A stretch of 64,000 nt of DNA, taken from contig JAWVXD010000011.1 in NCBI GenBank assembly GCA_033723415.1, forward strand, positions 1 to 64,000, in the 5' to 3' direction. Position 1 is the stretch's first letter; every line of letters starts with the position of its first letter. A model generated the notes under the pieces. That model worked only from the letters and a program-made list of their open reading frames with translations. It was not told the origin of the DNA and made no database searches. The position numbers and the translations under genes were made by a program. Positions 20,272 to 29,271 of this stretch are shown here, piece after piece. The stretch comes from Sulfurospirillaceae bacterium. Its GTDB lineage: Bacteria > Campylobacterota > Campylobacteria > Campylobacterales > Sulfurospirillaceae.

Positions 20272-21555
20272 TTATATAACACTTTTGATAAAAAACCGTG
20301 TCCCGCAAAGCAAGGAAATTTGACATTTTTGTAAAAATATACTTGCTTTGATCTCTTGTAATTTTGCTTTTACTGTTGCCAAGTCTGCAATAGAACGACT
20401 CAGTTCATCGGCACTGGCAAGTCCATTGTTAAATCTTCCTTTTGTGAGATCATAATAACTCTTTGAAGATAGTACTTCTTTACTTATAGCTTTTTCTCTA
20501 AACTTTAATGAACCTAGTGCAAGAATTGCATTTTTTAGAGTTTTTTTGACAGAGTTTTGATAGTCACTTAAATACAACAGTTCAGCATTTTTTTTGTAAA
20601 TCACAGACTCTCTCTCGCTTTTTTTCTCATTGCCATCAAAAATATTCCAGCTTATTGTTGCACCGATGTAACTTTGATTTGCATTTGTATAGCCATTGCC
20701 ATTTAGATTAAAATCATCTCCTTGTTTTTTAATCGCACCGACTAGAAATATCTGTGGGTATTTCTTGCTCTCTACTAGCGATATGTCTTGGTCGTCTATC
20801 TTCAACTTTGTTTTTAAAACTTTTATATCTTCCCTATTTGTTAAAGCAGTTTTGATTAGTGAGCTTTGGTCTATATTGATCTTTATAGCAGGTAAAATTT
20901 TTGGATCAGTTTTGATATTTGTTAAATACTGCAAGTTATTGATCAGATTCTCTTTTTGCTCATTTAAGGTTATAAGCTTTGACTCAATATCAAATTTTTG
21001 AGCCTCTATTTTATAGAGGTTTGATATATTTATAAGCCCGTTATCATACATGCTTTTAGCTTTTTTATATGAATCTTCTATAGCTGCTTTTGCTTCTTTT
21101 GTCGCCTCTATAGCTTTGTCAGCTGTAAATATCTTTGCATATAGTGTAGCAATTTTGAGATAAAGTTCCCTTTTTAATTCTGTAGTTTCCAAAGAGCTTT
21201 TCACAACTTCAAGTTTCGCTTTTTCTATACTTGTACTTATGGCAAAGCCTGTAAAAAGAGGGTAGGTTACACTTAAGTCGGCATTTATATTTGTGCGAGT
21301 TCCCATAGGCAGTGGATTTCCAAATCCTGGAAGATGCAGCATTGTAGTAGGCACATCTTGCAGCCTTGTCGTATTTAAGTGAATATCCAAAGATGGATAA
21401 TTCTTTGCTTTTTTGGCATTTAACATACTCTGTAGTGCTTTTGTCTGCTCATTTTTGGATTTTATGAGCAAGTTTTTATCAACACTATTGATTAATTTGC
21501 TAAAACTTGATGCATATAAAAAAATCGGTAAGATTAGAAATATATATTTTTTCAA
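20272..21555 (-). CDS. TolC-family outer membrane efflux protein
   Basis: Signal peptide, YPSL..., YPLFTG, SWNIFDG, RFNNGL motifs; operon with EmrAB-like genes. Confidence 0.88.
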   Translation of the reverse strand: MKKYIFLILPIFLYASSFSKLINSVDKNLLIKSKNEQTKALQSMLNAKKAKNYPSLDIHLNTTRLQDVPTTMLHLPGFGNPLPMGTRTNINADLSVTYPLFTGFAISTSIEKAKLEVVKSSLETTELKRELYLKIATLYAKIFTADKAIEATKEAKAAIEDSYKKAKSMYDNGLINISNLYKIEAQKFDIESKLITLNEQKENLINNLQYLTNIKTDPKILPAIKINIDQSSLIKTALTNREDIKVLKTKLKIDDQDISLVESKKYPQIFLVGAIKKQGDDFNLNGNGYTNANQSYIGATISWNIFDGNEKKSERESVIYKKNAELLYLSDYQNSVKKTLKNAILALGSLKFREKAISKEVLSSKSYYDLTKGRFNNGLASADELSRSIADLATVKAKLQEIKASIFLQKCQISLLCGTRFFIKSVI

Positions 21556-23096
21556 TTTTTATCCTTCCCTGTTTTGCCTTTTATTTTGACAAATAAAAGT
21601 ATCGTAAATATTGAGCCTATGACTCCCCAATGAGCTGCATCTGCAAAAACAGATGAGAAACCATAATTGTAACTCATAAATGTTTCATAATTTCTAAAAG
21701 ATGCTACAGTCTGATCCATCGAAATACCTAGAAAATTTTTAAAATTTTGTAGATAGTTGAATAGATATTGAGAATTTTGCAACTCTCCCATATGTGAAAA
21801 GTTTATGTTTTTAAAATATTCCATATTGTTTGTTGCCAGTGCAGTTCCAAAGCTTCCGCCTACAAATCTGACATAGTCCATCAGCACAATGGCAAGTTCA
21901 CCTTTTTCTGTTGGAGCATTTTGTAAAAGTAGTACTGTAACTGGCGCAAAGAACAATCCCATACCTATACCAAATGGAATAGTGAGCAGCTGGGCTTGTA
22001 CTAGAGGGGTATAATAATTCAGCGTCGGTAAAACAAAAATAGAAGTGATAATGTATATGACAGTAGCTATCAAGATCACGTTCTTTGCACCGATCTTGTC
22101 CGATAAAACTCCGGCAAGAGGTGAGAAAATACCTATAAAAACAGCAAAAACAAAAACTGATATACCGGCATCTAGAGTAGGCAACATTTTTATATGCTCA
22201 TAATAAACAGGCAAAAGATAAAAATACTGATACATACTAAACCCTAGTATGAAAAAGTAGATCAATATGCCGTTTGTAAAATCTGAATTTTTAAAAAGAG
22301 TAAAATCTATCAATGTATATTTTGAGTTCATTTCACTCAATATATATATGAGATATCCGACAATAGAAGCAAACAGTAAAAAACTCACTAAAGAATCATT
22401 CATCCAGCCTCTTTGCTGTCCTAAAGACAACATAATAAGTACTGATATGGTTGCGATTGAAATCCAAAAAAAGCTTATAAAGTTAAATCTGATTTTATTG
22501 AGATTTAAATCCTTCGGAAGAAAGATCAAGCTTGCGATAGTTAAAAGTATACCTATTGGAACATTGATAAAAAATACCATTCTCCAATTGTAATATTCTG
22601 TCAAATATCCTCCGATAGTGGGACCAAGTGCCGGAGCAAAGCTGATACCAAGACCAAATATACCCATAGCAAATCCTTGCTTTTTAGGTGGAAAATATGA
22701 AAAGATCATGATATGGCTTGTTACCATGATAAGAGCTTCTCCCGTTCCTTGAAAGATCCTTGCCATGATGATATAGGAAAGCTCATTTGAAATACCACAA
22801 ATAAATGAAGCCGTAGAGAAGATCACAATACCTGCGATAAAGACTTTTTTTGCACCGAATCTTTTTATCAGATACTCTGTTATGAGAAGCGCTATGGCAG
22901 CTGCTATCATATAACTGGTGATTATCCACTGTACTCCATACATATCTGAGGATAAAGGTCCTGTCAATTTTGGGACGATAACATCTACTATTGTAGTGTC
23001 AAGTATGGCCATAAAAGATCCGACCATCACGATTATGCTAAATATTGCTCGCTCTTTAGAGGTTATATCCCAACTGTTTTTGGCAGGTTCTTGCAT
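21552..23096 (-). CDS. DHA2 (EmrB/QacA) MFS efflux permease
   Basis: GSFMAILDTTIV, QWIITSY, ARIFQG, APALGPTIGGYL, WRMVFFINVPIG. Confidence 0.92.
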   Translation of the reverse strand: MQEPAKNSWDITSKERAIFSIIVMVGSFMAILDTTIVDVIVPKLTGPLSSDMYGVQWIITSYMIAAAIALLITEYLIKRFGAKKVFIAGIVIFSTASFICGISNELSYIIMARIFQGTGEALIMVTSHIMIFSYFPPKKQGFAMGIFGLGISFAPALGPTIGGYLTEYYNWRMVFFINVPIGILLTIASLIFLPKDLNLNKIRFNFISFFWISIATISVLIMLSLGQQRGWMNDSLVSFLLFASIVGYLIYILSEMNSKYTLIDFTLFKNSDFTNGILIYFFILGFSMYQYFYLLPVYYEHIKMLPTLDAGISVFVFAVFIGIFSPLAGVLSDKIGAKNVILIATVIYIITSIFVLPTLNYYTPLVQAQLLTIPFGIGMGLFFAPVTVLLLQNAPTEKGELAIVLMDYVRFVGGSFGTALATNNMEYFKNINFSHMGELQNSQYLFNYLQNFKNFLGISMDQTVASFRNYETFMSYNYGFSSVFADAAHWGVIGSIFTILLFVKIKGKTGKDKN

Positions 23097-23098
23097 TT

Positions 23099-24226
23099 TT
23101 ATTTTGATCTTTTGATAGCTACATTTGCACTCATACCGACTTTTAATCCATCAATCTTTTCTAAAGAGATGCGTACCGTAAATCTTTGGTCAAGCTTTGT
23201 AAACTCACCGCTTGCTATATCTCTTGGAACTAGTGAAAATGTTGATGCTGATGTCGGTAAGATCTTTTCGACCTTGCCTGTGTATTCTTTGCCATCAAGG
23301 GCATCCGGTTTGATTGATACAAGATTACCTATCTTTACGCCATGTAACTTTTTCTCAGACAGAAGTACTTCTACATGCAATTTTTTTGGATTGATTACGT
23401 AGTATATCGGATATCCTGAGCTTACGACTTGATCTACATTTGCAATCTTTTTTGCGATGATACCATCATATGGAGCTATCAGATTACAATATGAAATCTT
23501 GTTTTCAATTGCTTCTTTATCATCATTTAGTGCTTTTATCTTTGATTCAAGCGCCAAGATTGTTTTATTTAACTCTTTTGTGGAAGTTTTCTTTATTGCA
23601 GAGAGAGTTGCAGCATCTTCGACATTGTTTAGATTTGAAATCACAGAATCTAATTCTTGTTTTTGTGATAAAATCATATCTGATAGTGAATTTTTGGCAG
23701 TTAGGATATTTTCATAGTTATTTTTTGCAACAAGTTTCTCTTGTAGCATTCGTTTGTATCTTTTGGCATCTAGTTCTAATTTAGACAGCTTTGTTTCATT
23801 TGCTTTGATAGAAAGCTTTAATGACTCTATCTTGCTTTTGTATGATACTATATTGTTTTTTGCTATTTTTTCACTTAGATCAAGCTCTTTAGTGACTCTG
23901 GCGTATTTTTCTTCAAGGGCAGATTTACTCATCTTAAGAGAAGTAATAGAATTCTTTATTTTATTTAGCGTTACCAAAAAATCTTTATCATCGATACGAG
24001 CTAGTATTTCACCTTTTTTTATACTATCACCTTCATTTTTGGTCATATTTTTTATCTTACCTTTGACTTTAAAACTAAGAAGTGCAATAGAATCACTCTT
24101 TATAAAAGCAGCATCACTGACAGCATTGTCTGATCTGAATTTCAGATAGGCATATCCCTCGTAGCCAAAAAATAAAACCAATACCAATATAACAATATTT
24201 CCGATTTTTTTCATACGATATTCCAA
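23099..24226 (-). CDS. HlyD/EmrA-family periplasmic adaptor subunit (likely start ATG 24214)
   Basis: Lipoyl-like halves and coiled coil; TSASTFSLVPRDIASGEFTKLDQR, GMSANV. Confidence 0.9.
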   Translation of the reverse strand: MEYRMKKIGNIVILVLVLFFGYEGYAYLKFRSDNAVSDAAFIKSDSIALLSFKVKGKIKNMTKNEGDSIKKGEILARIDDKDFLVTLNKIKNSITSLKMSKSALEEKYARVTKELDLSEKIAKNNIVSYKSKIESLKLSIKANETKLSKLELDAKRYKRMLQEKLVAKNNYENILTAKNSLSDMILSQKQELDSVISNLNNVEDAATLSAIKKTSTKELNKTILALESKIKALNDDKEAIENKISYCNLIAPYDGIIAKKIANVDQVVSSGYPIYYVINPKKLHVEVLLSEKKLHGVKIGNLVSIKPDALDGKEYTGKVEKILPTSASTFSLVPRDIASGEFTKLDQRFTVRISLEKIDGLKVGMSANVAIKRSK

Positions 24227-24298
24227 TTTTGAAAATTTCTAAAATTATATCGCTTTAAGATTGAATGTTAACTTTTGAGAGAAGAGTAGAGGGAAAGT

Positions 24299-24337
24299 TT
24301 TACACCTTGCCTAGCTTGGCAAGTGGCAAGGTGTAAA
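24299..24337 (-). terminator. Terminator hairpin downstream of the cyc2-like gene
   Basis: Perfect 13-bp stem TTTACACCTTGCC / GGCAAGGTGTAAA followed on the minus strand by a pyrimidine tract. Confidence 0.75.
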
Positions 24338-24352
24338 TAAGAAGATATATGA

Positions 24353-25561
24353 TTAAAACATAAACCAGCCGATTAGGAATACGTTGTTGTTGTCTGAAGC
24401 ACCAACACTTGTTCCACCAAATTTAGTATAGTTATTAAATTGTGCAGCTAGTCTAATTTTTTCTGTTGGGACATAATCAAATTGAACTGTTGTTCCAGCA
24501 TTTTGAGTAGCTGAATTTAGTGAATCTGATACATAATCTAGAGTTATTCCATATTTTTGTTTATAGAAGTAGCTGATTTTTGCTTTATTAGTTTCAAGTT
24601 TATCAGTAGCACCACCACTTTGAGTTTCCCAAGTTTTGCTTGCTTGTGCTGTGATCAGGTGATCTCCATGGTTATACTGCCATTCTGCATCAAATGCGTG
24701 ATCTTTATATGTAACTGCAGCATCAGGAGTCGGGTCATAGTAGTGTCCTATTACTTTAGATCTTAAGTATTGTGCACCGACCATAACATAGTTGTCACCA
24801 AAATTGTGTTGTAGAGCAATTCTTGCATATGGAGATATGCCATCAGCATAATCATAACCAGCGCCACCGATATCTTTTATATTTGCAGCTGTGTCAGTTG
24901 AAAAATGAAAAACATTTAATAGTCCAGATGCTTTTGAACCTTTATATGCGTCAAACTCTGTATATAACCAGTTATTCCACATAGCATAAGCGCCAAGTCC
25001 AACTACATTATCTAGTCCGTCAAGTTTTGTTCCGCCGTTGTTAACGCCGCCTGCATAAGGATAACCCCAAGCAGAAGTACTATTCCATAAATCTTGTACT
25101 GTAGGACTATTATTTACTGTAAATCCATAATCAATAAACATTCCCTTTGCTTTTGTGGAATTCGCATATCTGAAATCCATATTGTCAGCACCAAAGATAC
25201 CTGCATCATCTAAGGTAGTTTGAACAAATGCACCTACATGATCTGTAATTTTACCACCGAAGAATATACTTGATTGTGGAATTTTTAGTGCATGATCAGC
25301 TGCAGTTGAATGTTTATTCATAGTGGAAGTCACTTGGATCATAGCTGCAAATTTAGAAGCTAAACTAGTATCTCCACCTTCTGTTGTATAACCGTGAAGC
25401 TTGAAATCTCGACCAGTTTGTGTTAATTCTGGAAACACTGTGTGACATGCAGAACAATTAAGTCCTGTTTGTCTTGCAAAAGCAGGGATAGCATTTGCAT
25501 TGTCTACAAGAGCAGCTGCAAGTAATGCACCGGCTGCAAGATACTTCAATGAAGTTTTCAT
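24353..25561 (-). CDS. cyc2: Cyc2-family outer-membrane monoheme cytochrome c-porin fusion (candidate iron oxidase / electron conduit)
   Basis: Signal peptide ending ANA, then IPAFARQTGLNCSACHTVFPELTQTGRDFKLHGY (Cyc2 signature); beta-barrel motifs NNSPTVQDLWNST, PYARIALQH, YFYKQKYGI; C-terminal aromatic residue (WFMF). Confidence 0.85.
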   Translation of the reverse strand: MKTSLKYLAAGALLAAALVDNANAIPAFARQTGLNCSACHTVFPELTQTGRDFKLHGYTTEGGDTSLASKFAAMIQVTSTMNKHSTAADHALKIPQSSIFFGGKITDHVGAFVQTTLDDAGIFGADNMDFRYANSTKAKGMFIDYGFTVNNSPTVQDLWNSTSAWGYPYAGGVNNGGTKLDGLDNVVGLGAYAMWNNWLYTEFDAYKGSKASGLLNVFHFSTDTAANIKDIGGAGYDYADGISPYARIALQHNFGDNYVMVGAQYLRSKVIGHYYDPTPDAAVTYKDHAFDAEWQYNHGDHLITAQASKTWETQSGGATDKLETNKAKISYFYKQKYGITLDYVSDSLNSATQNAGTTVQFDYVPTEKIRLAAQFNNYTKFGGTSVGASDNNNVFLIGWFMF

Positions 25562-25652
25562 TTATTTTCTCCTTATTTATATAATTGTAAGCTAATCCAG
25601 ATTCAGCGAATAAATCTTCTATAGCACCAAGCTTTTTTACTCCTACAGTGAA

Positions 25653-25706
25653 ATTCTAGAGGTATTTTCATAAAGATACATTGATTTTTTGATTAACTTT
25701 GATTAA
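25653..25706 (-). promoter_or_regulatory. Putative cyc2 promoter: -10 TAGAAT plus tandem direct repeats upstream of the -35 region
   Basis: Minus-strand TAGAAT at 25653-25658; TTTGATTAA repeated at 25688-25696 and 25698-25706 (10-bp period). Confidence 0.45.
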
Positions 25707-25897
25707 TCTTATATTTAATATTTCCTGATAGAATGACAAAAATCTGACTATTTCAGTTACGCGATAATTTTTTTAATTTTATAATTTACTTTATAGCTTT
25801 AAATAGTATAAATTATTATAATTATTATAAATATATATAATGTTATTTAAAATGTTAATTCTTTTTAATTATTCTTAGTAGCTTACAAATTTTTTTG

Positions 25898-25906
25898 TGA
25901 TATAAT
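25898..25906 (+). promoter_or_regulatory. Extended -10 promoter for the two-component operon
   Basis: TGaTATAAT about 130 nt upstream of the response regulator ATG. Confidence 0.45.
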
Positions 25907-26036
25907 TTCTTCTTGTTATAGAATAAAAATCTACAATATGCTTAATATTACGGCATTGTAGTTCCAAGTAGAATTTTAAATTCAAATTAATTTTTAGAGT
26001 TTTTAATTAATAATTTTTATAGAAAAGTGGTAATTT

Positions 26037-26705
26037 ATGAATATTTTAGTAGTAGAAGATGACGCTCAGATAGCCTCATATTTACAAAAAGGGCTGCTTG
26101 AAGAGTCTTTTTCGGTTGATGTTGCAAATGACGGAGTTGAAGGTCTTGCTTGTATTAGAAAAAAAACTTATGATGTTATTGTATTAGATTGGATGCTTCC
26201 TAATTTGGACGGTATAGATATTTGTACAATTGCAAGAAAAAACAACATAAATACACCTATTCTGATGCTTAGTGCAAAAAGTAGCATTCAAGATAGAATT
26301 GAAGGTTTAAATAGTGGAGCAGATGACTATCTGCCAAAACCATTTTCATTTGATGAACTCATTGCCAGGATAAATGCTTTATTAAGACGAAAAAAATTTC
26401 AAAAAGCAAATATATTAGAAATAGCGGATCTTGTTTTTGATATAACCGAGCGAAAAGCTACAAGAGCAGGCAAATTGATCACTCTTACCATAAAAGAATA
26501 TGAACTCTTAGAGATATTGATGGAAAATAAAGGTCATGTCGTAAGCACAAAAAAGATAATCTCTCATTTGTGGAAAGATGAAACAATATCAAGCAATATC
26601 ATAATAGTCCTAATCCACCACCTAAGAAGCAAGATAGATGACGGACATTCTAAAAAACTGATAAAAACGATACGAAAAATCGGATATAAGATAGATGATG
26701 TTTAG
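26037..26705 (+). CDS. OmpR-family response regulator (CusR/CzcR-like)
   Basis: ILVVEDD, LDWMLP, GADDYLPKPFSFDELIARINALLRR, winged helix LRSKID...TIRKIGY. Confidence 0.92.
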   Translation: MNILVVEDDAQIASYLQKGLLEESFSVDVANDGVEGLACIRKKTYDVIVLDWMLPNLDGIDICTIARKNNINTPILMLSAKSSIQDRIEGLNSGADDYLPKPFSFDELIARINALLRRKKFQKANILEIADLVFDITERKATRAGKLITLTIKEYELLEILMENKGHVVSTKKIISHLWKDETISSNIIIVLIHHLRSKIDDGHSKKLIKTIRKIGYKIDDV

Positions 26706-28083
26706 CAATATCAGAAGCATAAAATCAAAGATTTTTCTCTCTTACGGTGCTATCTTGATAGTAGCCGTAGTCTTTTCAAATTTTATGTTTTATTCTTTGG
26801 CTAAAAGATATTTCTATAATAATACAATACAGGCATTGGAAAGTATCTCCAGAGATGTTATCGTGGATGATATAGAAGGTAAAAATTTAAAGAACGGCGT
26901 TACATTGGCAGTTCATAAATACAAGTTTAGTATACCAAATGTTTACATTCAAGCCAGATATAAAGATAAGGTTGTTCTAAAATCAAAGAACATGAGAAAC
27001 CTTGAATTACCGAAATACGACTTTTCTCAGAAAAGTGCTATTACTTTTGTAAAAATAAGTGATATTTCTAAATATGAACTCATAATTTATGCAACAAAAA
27101 TAGAATCAGACAAAGATTATACAGTGCAAATTGCTACAACCAATGAGCAGGAAAAACAACACCTTTCAAAAATCTTACATATGTTTTTAGTTGGTGATCC
27201 TATATTTATATTAGTTATATTGTTGATCATTTATAAAATGCTTTTGGATATACTCAAGCCCATGAATACCATCATAAGAACCGCTAAAAACATATCAATA
27301 ACAGATTTGGATAAAAGAATTCCATATAAAGATAACGGAGATGAGTTTGCAGAACTTGCAAAAACATTCAATAAAATGCTCTCTCGTCTTCAGTCGTCTT
27401 TTGACCAAATCAAGAGATTTAGTTCAGATGCGTCACACCAGCTCAAAACACCTCTGACTTCAATGCGTGTACAAACAGATGTTGCATTAAAAATGGATAG
27501 AGATGTTGATGAATATAAAAAAGTTTTAAAATCAATAAACGGTGAGATCATATATCTTCAGGAGATGATAAACGACTTGTTTTTATTAACGCAGATGGAT
27601 GATGAGATAATCCAAAAAAATTTCAAAAATATAGACCTTGACAATATTTTGATGAATGCAATCGGAGAATTTGTTTTGATAGCAAACAAAAAAGGTGTCA
27701 ATTTAGATATAAAAGATATAAAAAGCACTCCTATCAAGGGCGAAAATACTCTAGTTTCTATCCTATGCTCGAACCTCATAGACAATGCTATAAAGTATAC
27801 TCAAAAAGGCAAAAGTGTTTCCATAGAACTAAAGGACAACACTGTTATTGTAGAAGATGAAGGAATCGGAATCAAAGAAGAAGATTTAAAACATATCTTT
27901 GATAAGTTTTTCAGAGTGCATTCCGGAAGATCTGAAGGAGTTCAGGGTTATGGACTAGGGTTGTCTATAGTTAAGATCATAGCAAATCTCCATAATGCAC
28001 AGATACGCATAGAAAGTAAAATTGGAGTTGGAACCAGAATAGAAGTAGAATTTCCAACTGTTGATTCGAATCAAAATTTATAA
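26695..28083 (+). CDS. HAMP-HisKA sensor histidine kinase (CusS/CzcS-like)
   Basis: Two TM segments, HAMP (DEFAELAKTFNKML), H-box ASHQLKTPL, NLIDNAIKY, DEGIGI, GYGLGLSIV. Confidence 0.92.
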   Translation: MMFSNIRSIKSKIFLSYGAILIVAVVFSNFMFYSLAKRYFYNNTIQALESISRDVIVDDIEGKNLKNGVTLAVHKYKFSIPNVYIQARYKDKVVLKSKNMRNLELPKYDFSQKSAITFVKISDISKYELIIYATKIESDKDYTVQIATTNEQEKQHLSKILHMFLVGDPIFILVILLIIYKMLLDILKPMNTIIRTAKNISITDLDKRIPYKDNGDEFAELAKTFNKMLSRLQSSFDQIKRFSSDASHQLKTPLTSMRVQTDVALKMDRDVDEYKKVLKSINGEIIYLQEMINDLFLLTQMDDEIIQKNFKNIDLDNILMNAIGEFVLIANKKGVNLDIKDIKSTPIKGENTLVSILCSNLIDNAIKYTQKGKSVSIELKDNTVIVEDEGIGIKEEDLKHIFDKFFRVHSGRSEGVQGYGLGLSIVKIIANLHNAQIRIESKIGVGTRIEVEFPTVDSNQNL

Positions 28084-28101
28084 TACAACAAAGGAAATTT
28101 T

Positions 28102-29271
28102 TTGAAAAAGTTTGATAAAGGTGAAGTGCTAACCATATCTTTTAGTCACTTTGCTCATGATATATACTCTTCATTTTTGGCACCTATGTTGCCGTTTTTG
28201 ATATCAAAACTTGGTATAAGCCTCTCAGAAGCATCTCTTTTTGATATTGCAAGAAGAATACCTGCACTTTTTAATCCATTATTTGGCTTGATGGCAGAAA
28301 AAAGCAGCATAAAATATATAGTCATATTTACACCATCCATAACGGCTATTTCTATGAGCTTACTTGGACTTGCCAATTCTTATATCTTGGCTCTGATCTT
28401 ACTTTTTGTTGCAGGACTCAGTGCTGCACTTTATCATATACCTTCACCTGTGATGATCAAAGAAGCTTCGGGCAGTAAAGTAGGTACAGGTATGAGCTTT
28501 TTCATGGTTGGCGGAGAAGGTGCAAGAACCGTAGGACCGTTAGTTATCACAGGAGCTATCTCACTATGGGGACTTGATGGTACATACAGACTTGTACCAT
28601 TTGGACTACTTGCTTCAGCATTGCTTTTTTACAAACTAAGAAATTTTCATTTAGATACATCACTTCGTAAAAAAAGAGAGAAAGGGGATACAAAAAAATT
28701 TCTCGTCAAATATTATCCTTTTTTTACCGGTCTGGGTGGTTTTTTAATGTTTCAATCTGCTATGAAGTCAGTTTTGGTTCTATATTTGCCTGTTTATCTT
28801 ATGCATCATGGCGCAGATATTTGGAGGGCGGGTATCTCTTTGTCTGTTTTGGAATTTTTTGGTGTCGCAGGAACTTTGTTTGCAGGCTCTTACTCAGATA
28901 AGATCGGTAGACACAATATGCTGCTTATCTCAACTGTCATGTCGGCTGTTTTTATGGTTTTATTTGTACTGTTTCACTCTGTTTTGCTATTTCCGATACT
29001 TGCTGTTTTGGGGTTTTTCTTATTTGCATCGGGACCTGTACTTATGGCTAGTGTTCAAGATCTGAATTCTCATATGCCTACTTTTGCAAATAGTTTATAT
29101 ATGAGTGTAAATTTTGGAGTAAGTTCTATTGTGGTTTTTATGATAGGATTATCAGGAGATTATTTAGGATTGGATATTACATACAAGGTTACAGCAGCTT
29201 TGGCATTTGTATGTATTCCTTTTACACTGTTTTTGAAAAAAATTATGCAAGGATTAAAAAATGAAAACTAA
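28102..29271 (+). CDS. MFS transporter, Fsr (fosmidomycin resistance)-like
   Basis: SHFAHDIY, ALYHIP, GMSFFMVGG, SDKIGR. Confidence 0.8.
   Translation: MKKFDKGEVLTISFSHFAHDIYSSFLAPMLPFLISKLGISLSEASLFDIARRIPALFNPLFGLMAEKSSIKYIVIFTPSITAISMSLLGLANSYILALILLFVAGLSAALYHIPSPVMIKEASGSKVGTGMSFFMVGGEGARTVGPLVITGAISLWGLDGTYRLVPFGLLASALLFYKLRNFHLDTSLRKKREKGDTKKFLVKYYPFFTGLGGFLMFQSAMKSVLVLYLPVYLMHHGADIWRAGISLSVLEFFGVAGTLFAGSYSDKIGRHNMLLISTVMSAVFMVLFVLFHSVLLFPILAVLGFFLFASGPVLMASVQDLNSHMPTFANSLYMSVNFGVSSIVVFMIGLSGDYLGLDITYKVTAALAFVCIPFTLFLKKIMQGLKNEN

Follow-up and report, generated by a model that had tools for sequence, protein, structure and literature searches.

The genome of a Sulfurospirillaceae bacterium (G000; other G and L numbers denote compared genomes and loci) carries a cyc2 gene next to a divergent response regulator and sensor kinase, and this three-gene unit recurs in its genus. 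The linkage of cyc2 to the regulator/kinase pair, and a Cluster-1-like Cyc2 in the same slot of close relatives, are new detail. We give an even chance to the reading that the encoded protein, P0001, is a Cluster 2 Cyc2 that draws on dissolved Fe(II) for electrons, as a supplementary source of energy, under the positive control of the neighbouring pair. More tentatively, the three genes may form a dedicated regulated unit of one marine Sulfurospirillaceae genus, in which Cyc2 proteins of Clusters 2 and 1 took one another's place while promoter repeat and signal peptide stayed the same. Such a natural swap experiment would mean that both do the same job, neutral-pH Fe(II) oxidation, and that the hosts are facultative iron oxidisers. 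If this holds, the cue of the linked sensor would reveal what Cyc2 is for.

cyc2 is widely used as a marker of iron oxidation, but within Cluster 2 a single protein, from an acidophile, has been tested. A matched Cluster 2 and Cluster-1-like pair from one genus, with common promoter, leader and regulator, would allow a clean side-by-side test of neutral-pH iron oxidation by Cluster 2, and through the linked sensor the signal that induces cyc2 could be sought. The cyc2 gene alone is no discovery; what the regulated slot, with its two Cyc2 clusters, adds is modest but testable.

A predicted cytochrome–porin of the Cyc2 family

Cyc2 proteins have been defined by AxPxFAR[Q/K][T/Y] ahead of a single CxxCH, a PxL four residues after it, and a 16-stranded OprP/OprO-like barrel (PMC8406198). 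The cyc2 gene occupies positions 24353–25561 on the minus strand of the window (the whole 64,000-nucleotide stretch of DNA analysed; contig C11) and encodes 402 amino acids, within the family's length range of at least 365. The strict pattern AxPxFAR[QK][TY]..CxxCH-xxx-PxL matches residues 24–46 of the translation, and the signature with its heme plug domain (AxPxFARQT, CxxCH and PxL) lies at 25424–25492, minus strand. The single CxxCH, residues 36–40, falls at 25442–25456, exactly where the first-pass annotation had put it, and PxL follows four residues past the heme His. The AxPxFAR[QK][TY] motif occurs in one of 5317 open reading frames of the genome, cyc2 itself. A Sec signal peptide is predicted for residues 1–24 (25490–25561, minus strand), judged by eye from a basic start, a hydrophobic helix at residues 4–17, which the structure model also contains, and ANA ahead of Ile25.

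An AlphaFold2 model built on a 116-row alignment of P0001-type proteins (pLDDT 91.4, pTM 0.87) places three short helices past the leader, followed by 16 strands. The predicted barrel spans residues 71–401 (24359–25351, minus strand) and the protein ends in ...WFMF, with the terminal Phe noted at first pass. Within the barrel, seven acidic residues are conserved at 93–100% in the alignment (D126, D129, D157, E202, D287, D291, E312). A structure search with the model returned OprP at the top (Z 21.4, rmsd 3.8, 294 residues aligned), with other 16-strand porins tied to it at most 1 Z apart; OprP has also been reported as a Cyc2 template (PMC8406198). OprP/OprO and other 16-stranded porins share the barrel fold but only ~11% identity, and have no heme domain. 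Pfam gave no match to P0001, and neither NCBIfam nor the PDB sequences yielded a relevant one. The model thus predicts the 16-stranded barrel with N-terminal cytochrome domain of Cyc2, and on its sequence P0001 is an ordinary member of the family, as first proposed, agreeing with the published features that were tested.

The conservation pattern bears on one alternative, that P0001 is a regulated porin whose heme plug gates the pore or acts as a sensor, with no catabolic electron flow. A channel-porin fold, no partner cytochrome and no fully invariant second axial heme ligand in the 116 rows (the best candidate, M74, is kept in 87%) would suit such a porin, but the Cyc2 motif and CxxCH are invariant across the 116 homologs at 32–66% identity, with the ligand residues C36, C39 and H40 present in 116/116, and tested Cyc2 proteins are redox-active (PMC8406198). 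We consider a purely gating or sensing role very unlikely.

P0001, with its predicted signal peptide, Cyc2 motif, single CxxCH and predicted 16-strand barrel, resembles Cyc2 of A. ferrooxidans and Cluster 2 proteins of Sulfuriferula, and is shorter than the A. ferrooxidans protein (402 against 485 residues; 10.1101/2021.03.22.436458). Cluster 1 proteins (Mariprofundus PV-1, Gallionellaceae and the epsilonproteobacterial clade of PMC12442345) have the same architecture.

Cluster assignment and relatives

Cyc2 clusters were defined in PMC7029218, and Cluster 2 is the largest of them, with 858 of 1593 sequences (PMC8406198). Among 8000 candidates we found 594 homologs of P0001, the best named ones from Sulfurospirillum, Sulfuricurvum and Sulfurimonas; 15 plasmid records also matched. 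The best 80 of 579 GTDB stretches come from Campylobacterota, Pseudomonas, Pseudoduganella, Trinickia, Sulfuriferula, Methylomicrobium, Bacteroidota, Gemmatimonadota (Gemmatimonadales), Acidobacteriota and others, most of them, to our knowledge, taxa not known as iron oxidisers. A plasmid homolog from A. ferrooxidans was considered as the Cyc2 of the rus operon and rejected, being a different gene that is also found in Acidiphilium.

Trees were computed quickly for 155 rows and carefully for two hand-picked sets of 58 and 26 rows, under LG+G4 with no mixture and rooted at the midpoint, after removal of three duplicate rows. In the careful tree P0001 falls in a Campylobacterota subclade (13 rows, support 81/99) inside a 28-row clade (100/100) that includes Sulfuriferula MAGs and the record L010 (Sulfurospirillum sp. 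MAY_MAG_00004); in the 155-row tree the Dive100 Bacteroidetes record L023 joins the P0001 group. We label the 28-row clade Cluster 2 because three papers anchor it, through records whose match to those papers is presumed from their names: Fe(II) supports growth of Sulfuriferula strains that carry a Cluster 2 cyc2 (PMC12285272), FeGenie called a Cluster 2 cyc2 in a Sulfurospirillaceae MAG, Campylobacterota_MAG04 (PMC12261689), with which we infer L010 to be identical, and Bacteroidota MAGs of Dive samples carry Cluster 2 cyc2 (PMC9769843). P0001, grouping with Sulfuriferula and the other anchored sequences, very probably belongs to Cluster 2, as suggested at first pass, in a tree that lacks the A. 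ferrooxidans type protein and a Cluster 3 reference.

It lies outside Cluster 1: Gallionella P0364 and Gallionellaceae P0218 sit across a 100/100 branch, and P0001 scores 417 bits with the profile of its own type, of whose alignment it is a member, against 71 bits with the Cluster-1-like profile. The two profiles align over 365 columns (E 3e-41). The strict motif pattern matches 86/116 own-type and 0/118 Cluster-1-like proteins; judging from the sequences, the latter count is a matter of spacing ahead of PxL, the motif itself being present.

The first-pass annotation had taken cyc2 to be unexpected in Campylobacterota, a view that the literature overturns: an epsilonproteobacterial Cluster 1 clade has been described (PMC12442345), the Sulfurospirillaceae MAG is in print (PMC12261689) and Sulfurimonas cyc2 has been mentioned (bioRxiv 10.64898/2026.02.17.706317). 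The gene is also reported in 97 MAGs of 20 phyla (PMC12482716), and further literature on it exists (PMC12383625, PMC13647500). The P0001 clade may itself be on record already, in labelled trees (figshare, Dryad) or in Table S4 of PMC12261689. In our survey of 401 Campylobacterota genomes the P0001-type profile matched 15, four at full length (G000 included) and one only by a broken weak match, and the Cluster-1-like profile matched 16, two of them weakly. cyc2 is uncommon in Campylobacterota, but known there.

Several relatives have settings of their own. In G239 and G179 (L117:7066-8415, L118:7625-8959) a TonB/ABC uptake region near a cobQ-like gene has a P0001-type Cyc2 gene, in antisense orientation, between its ATPase and permease genes. 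A Campylobacteraceae MAG (L009:3878-7278) has a non-orthologous regulator/kinase pair (36% and 27% identity) directly upstream of a P0001-type Cyc2, and in G299 and G343 (L121:6671-9760, L123:7067-10241) cyc2-like genes come in tandem pairs, accompanied by a small cytochrome c in divergent orientation.

A three-gene unit conserved in the genus

Divergent from cyc2 on the plus strand lie an OmpR-family response regulator (26037–26705) and a HAMP-HisKA-HATPase sensor kinase (26695–28083), both identified by domain search and congener comparison. Kinase orthologs (65–75% identity, E <1e-188) occur in 8/14 genomes of the genus and in 0/47 other genomes of the family, where weaker matches are paralogs. 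cyc2 adjoins the regulator/kinase pair in seven of these eight, divergent from it in G000, G005, G006, G008 and G011 and downstream of it in G010 as well as G012 (split over two contigs); in the eighth, G009, the contig ends 112 bases past the kinase and cyc2 was not found. The six congeners without a kinase ortholog (90–100% complete) match none of three Cyc2 queries (0/6). These counts come from related genomes, which are not independent, and are given without a statistical test, yet they tie cyc2 to the two-component pair more strongly than the first-pass annotation could see. Beyond the genus such linkage is rare: 7/78 loci (from the best 80 of 579 GTDB loci, two dropped as having no recognisable open reading frame) have a homolog of the regulator or the kinase at most 3 kb from cyc2.

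The unit occupies two different chromosomal sites among congeners. The named record L010 holds it in the same setting as G006 and G011, with a 52% identical P0001 ortholog beside the same regulator/kinase pair; the accessible text of PMC12261689 gives the Sulfurospirillaceae cyc2 one sentence, with no context, regulator or phylogeny. A metagenome scan for the kinase gave close matches at 6/80 loci, mostly repeats of known ones, and one new locus, L163, with a Cluster-1-like cyc2. The window stretch 23000–28600 lies wholly within one contig of a tidal-flat run, X1, which may be its source, and short cyc2 pieces of 100% identity occur in X2, a marine sediment run of a second study. Among literature titles we found nothing relevant on cyc2–regulator/kinase linkage or on a Cyc2 swap.

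The closest complete congener, G013 (ValS 88%), has lost the unit. A decayed kinase end and half of the hairpin downstream of cyc2 remain at its empty site, the former a 3′ fragment with a frameshift and a stop (L289:12275-12582). Recent insertion of the unit into G000 was considered and rejected on account of this decayed end. The loss is a single deletion and alone weak evidence. Patchy in the genus and deleted in G013, the unit is evidently dispensable.

The upstream region is shared as well. An AAGGAG Shine–Dalgarno sequence (25569–25574, minus strand), the gene's own as first annotated, stands 7 nt ahead of the ATG. Further upstream on the same strand, alignment of congener regions identifies a –10-like hexamer of a putative promoter (25653–25658), at conserved spacing behind a 10-bp-period repeat, TTAAY-N5-WTAAY (25692–25706), a candidate site for the adjacent regulator. 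Repeat and –10-like box stand at a fixed distance upstream of cyc2 in 8/8 aligned rows, in both gene arrangements and with both Cyc2 types; the repeat pattern was derived from the same eight rows, and per row about 1% of shuffles contain it. Three held-out loci (L159, L160, L164) are near-copies of rows already used and thus not independent for this comparison. The repeat occurs eight times in the AT-rich G000 genome, the other seven being taken as chance, and outside the genus it lies upstream of 1/14 cyc2-like genes. A sigma-70 scan gave 10 sites against 11.6 expected.

Downstream of cyc2, a 13-bp hairpin (24299–24337, minus strand) folds at –20.4 kcal/mol, a stability equalled by 0/200 shuffles. 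The proposal that cyc2 has its own terminator is thus half borne out: the hairpin is strong, but it has no T-run and a terminator scan listed no site, which leaves it terminator-like only. Beyond it lies an EmrAB-TolC-type efflux operon (20272–24226) with its own strong promoter-like site. We considered this pump as a partner of cyc2 and rejected it: the pump persists where the unit has gone, and the unit is found at a second site too.

At first pass the regulator and kinase were described as a divergent metal-type two-component system. The divergent pair is real; 'metal-type' reflects best matches under the cut-offs only. The pair shares an OmpR-type regulator and a HAMP kinase with the CusRS/CzcRS heavy-metal systems, but scores below the curated cut-offs of both NCBIfam models (TIGR01387, 235.9 against 279.2 bits; TIGR01386, 247.2 against 292.55 bits), which by sequence would place it outside the family as defined. 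These matches are nevertheless the starting point for a second alternative, in which the pore would serve protection and yield no energy, oxidising or buffering Fe(II) or a different metal at the cell surface under control of a sensor of metal stress. The unit's separation from respiratory genes and the P0001-type Cyc2 inside the uptake region of two other Campylobacterota genomes fit this protective role, which we nonetheless hold to be unlikely: besides the sub-threshold scores, the outside domain of the sensor contains just 2 His, 1 Met and 0 Cys, and the unit is linked to no genes for metal efflux, the pump next to it being of EmrAB-TolC type with its own promoter-like site and persisting without the unit. 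The same outside domain carries an acidic patch (D54, D58 and D59, within residues 54–59) that, with H74, is invariant in 7/7 orthologs and could be a ligand site. Two-component control of cyc2 has a precedent in RegBA, reported to control iron-oxidation genes in A. ferrooxidans (PMC5506826); in G000, unlike there, the pair is physically tied to cyc2.

Two types of Cyc2 in one slot

Three congeners of G000 (G005, G006, G008) carry a P0001-type protein in the slot, 54–55% identical over its full length. The slot protein of G010, G011 and G012 matches P0001 only at the N-terminus. One of these, P0122, is likewise predicted to be a heme-plugged barrel (pLDDT 89.3). This second type groups with proteins from Gallionella, Gallionellaceae, Rhodocyclales, Deltaproteobacteria, Sulfurimonas and Persephonella (20 rows, 100/98), a make-up as reported for Cluster 1, and we call it Cluster-1-like in a tree that contains no Zetaproteobacteria reference. 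An AU test rejects a single clade for the six slot proteins (p 2.7e-5; the group was named after seeing the trees).

In the joint tree of regulator and kinase, G011 is sister to G008 (100/99), among holders of the P0001 type, and its Cluster-1-like Cyc2 has a leader 79% identical to that of P0001 and a barrel 22% identical; across the Cluster-1-like type, barrel identity to P0001 is 19–24%. Among 22 chosen rows, six other clusters with the same mix have leaders 67–79% identical to that of P0001, and seven further Cluster-1-like leaders reach 21–50%. Misassembly is disfavoured as a source of the leader/barrel mix because the mix recurs. In G011, a Cluster-1-like Cyc2 appears to have been exchanged into the slot while the signal peptide was kept. 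We claim no order of events beyond G011, since the ValS tree is largely unresolved (8/10 inner branches open).

The swap hints that Cluster 2 and Cluster 1 Cyc2 are interchangeable. The two types are not fully equivalent in partners, because an unannotated lipoprotein of 175–182 amino acids trails the Cluster-1-like slot genes, being next after cyc2 in 3/3 congeners (L114:4137-4685, L115:8743-9285, L291:3011-3538) and absent from G000. Two of the three lipoproteins were searched against Pfam and NCBIfam and gave no match; the C-terminus is one that we take to be SHOCT-like.

Fe(II) oxidation and electron transfer

In the mechanism that we favour, P0001 would be exported by Sec and receive its heme from the sole CcsA-type system of the genome, leaving one c-heme at the periplasmic face of the predicted barrel. 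Fe(II) would enter the acidic pore, and electrons would pass from the heme to a small c-type cytochrome, of which other loci encode several, and from there to a cbb3 or caa3 oxidase or to the Nap/Nor/NosZ denitrification chain, while carbon is fixed by the rTCA cycle. For this host, a sediment bacterium with Sox and hydrogenase, iron would be an optional donor. An external cue would be perceived by the kinase, and the TTAAY repeat upstream of cyc2 would be the site where the regulator binds.

Cyc2 proteins of all three clusters oxidised Fe(II) where tested, but many members of Clusters 2 and 3 are only distantly related to the tested proteins and may have other roles (PMC8406198). In favour of Fe(II) as the donor, the P0001 clade holds Sulfuriferula MAGs, the heme ligand residues are invariant and the seven acidic residues are kept, and a Cyc2 of the Gallionella-containing clade fills the slot in G010, G011 and G012. 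For the A. ferrooxidans barrel, Asp-rich iron sites have been proposed from modelling (preprint 10.1101/2021.03.22.436458). Against it, G000 has no cytochrome gene adjacent to cyc2, as the first-pass annotation had noticed, whereas a CxxCH gene adjoins cyc2 at 38/63 loci with full flanks (from the best 80 of 579 GTDB loci); the unit is patchily distributed and deleted in G013; and a search of literature titles found no demonstration of Fe(II) growth in Campylobacterota. Compared with A. ferrooxidans, there is no rus operon, no genes for Cyc1, rusticyanin or an oxidase adjoin cyc2, and the host is of neutral marine sediment. We place Fe(II) oxidation at about an even chance, since most of the nearest relatives of P0001 belong to taxa that are not known iron oxidisers.

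The wide spread of Cyc2 through heterotrophs and sulfur oxidisers, its overlap with the latter being noted in PMC12442345 as well, fits a more general outer-membrane electron conduit, whose partner would be FeS or other sulfide mineral surfaces, reduced humics or Mn, or which would release electrons under anoxia, in place of free Fe(II). The host is a Sox/hydrogenase lithotroph, and reversibility has been described for A. ferrooxidans (10.1101/2021.03.22.436458). We regard such a conduit as possible but rather unlikely: a single periplasmic-side heme has been argued to fit a dissolved ion entering the pore and not a solid (PMC8406198), and no multiheme partner is linked to cyc2.

Host genome and a second Cyc2-like gene

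The G000 genome (2.43 Mb, 100% complete) encodes a complete soxCDXYZAB set, a NiFe hydrogenase and ATP citrate lyase. Three heme-copper family subunits I, including CcoN, score over the cut-off (cbb3 and caa3-type), bc1 is present and a bd-type oxidase subunit falls below the cut-off. Denitrification genes comprise NapA, a Nor-like pair and NosZ. One CcsA-type gene serves cytochrome maturation, and at least four small Cytochrom_C proteins are encoded away from cyc2. Elsewhere, 8- and 12-heme cytochromes resemble ExtN/ExtM below the cut-off (G000:C4:183320-186372, L247), and other sites encode a 5-heme ExtKL-like cytochrome and a 5-heme lipoprotein.

The genome also contains a second Cyc2-like gene (P0371; G000:C6:96427-97848, equal to L251:6428-7849), with a duplicated heme domain, two CxxCH sites (residues 37 and 85) and a degenerate motif. 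None of the 150 best representatives is a Cyc2 with two CxxCH. The G430 ortholog (65%) keeps both sites, and from its sequence P0371 is a rare, putatively diheme variant that the tree places towards Cluster 1.
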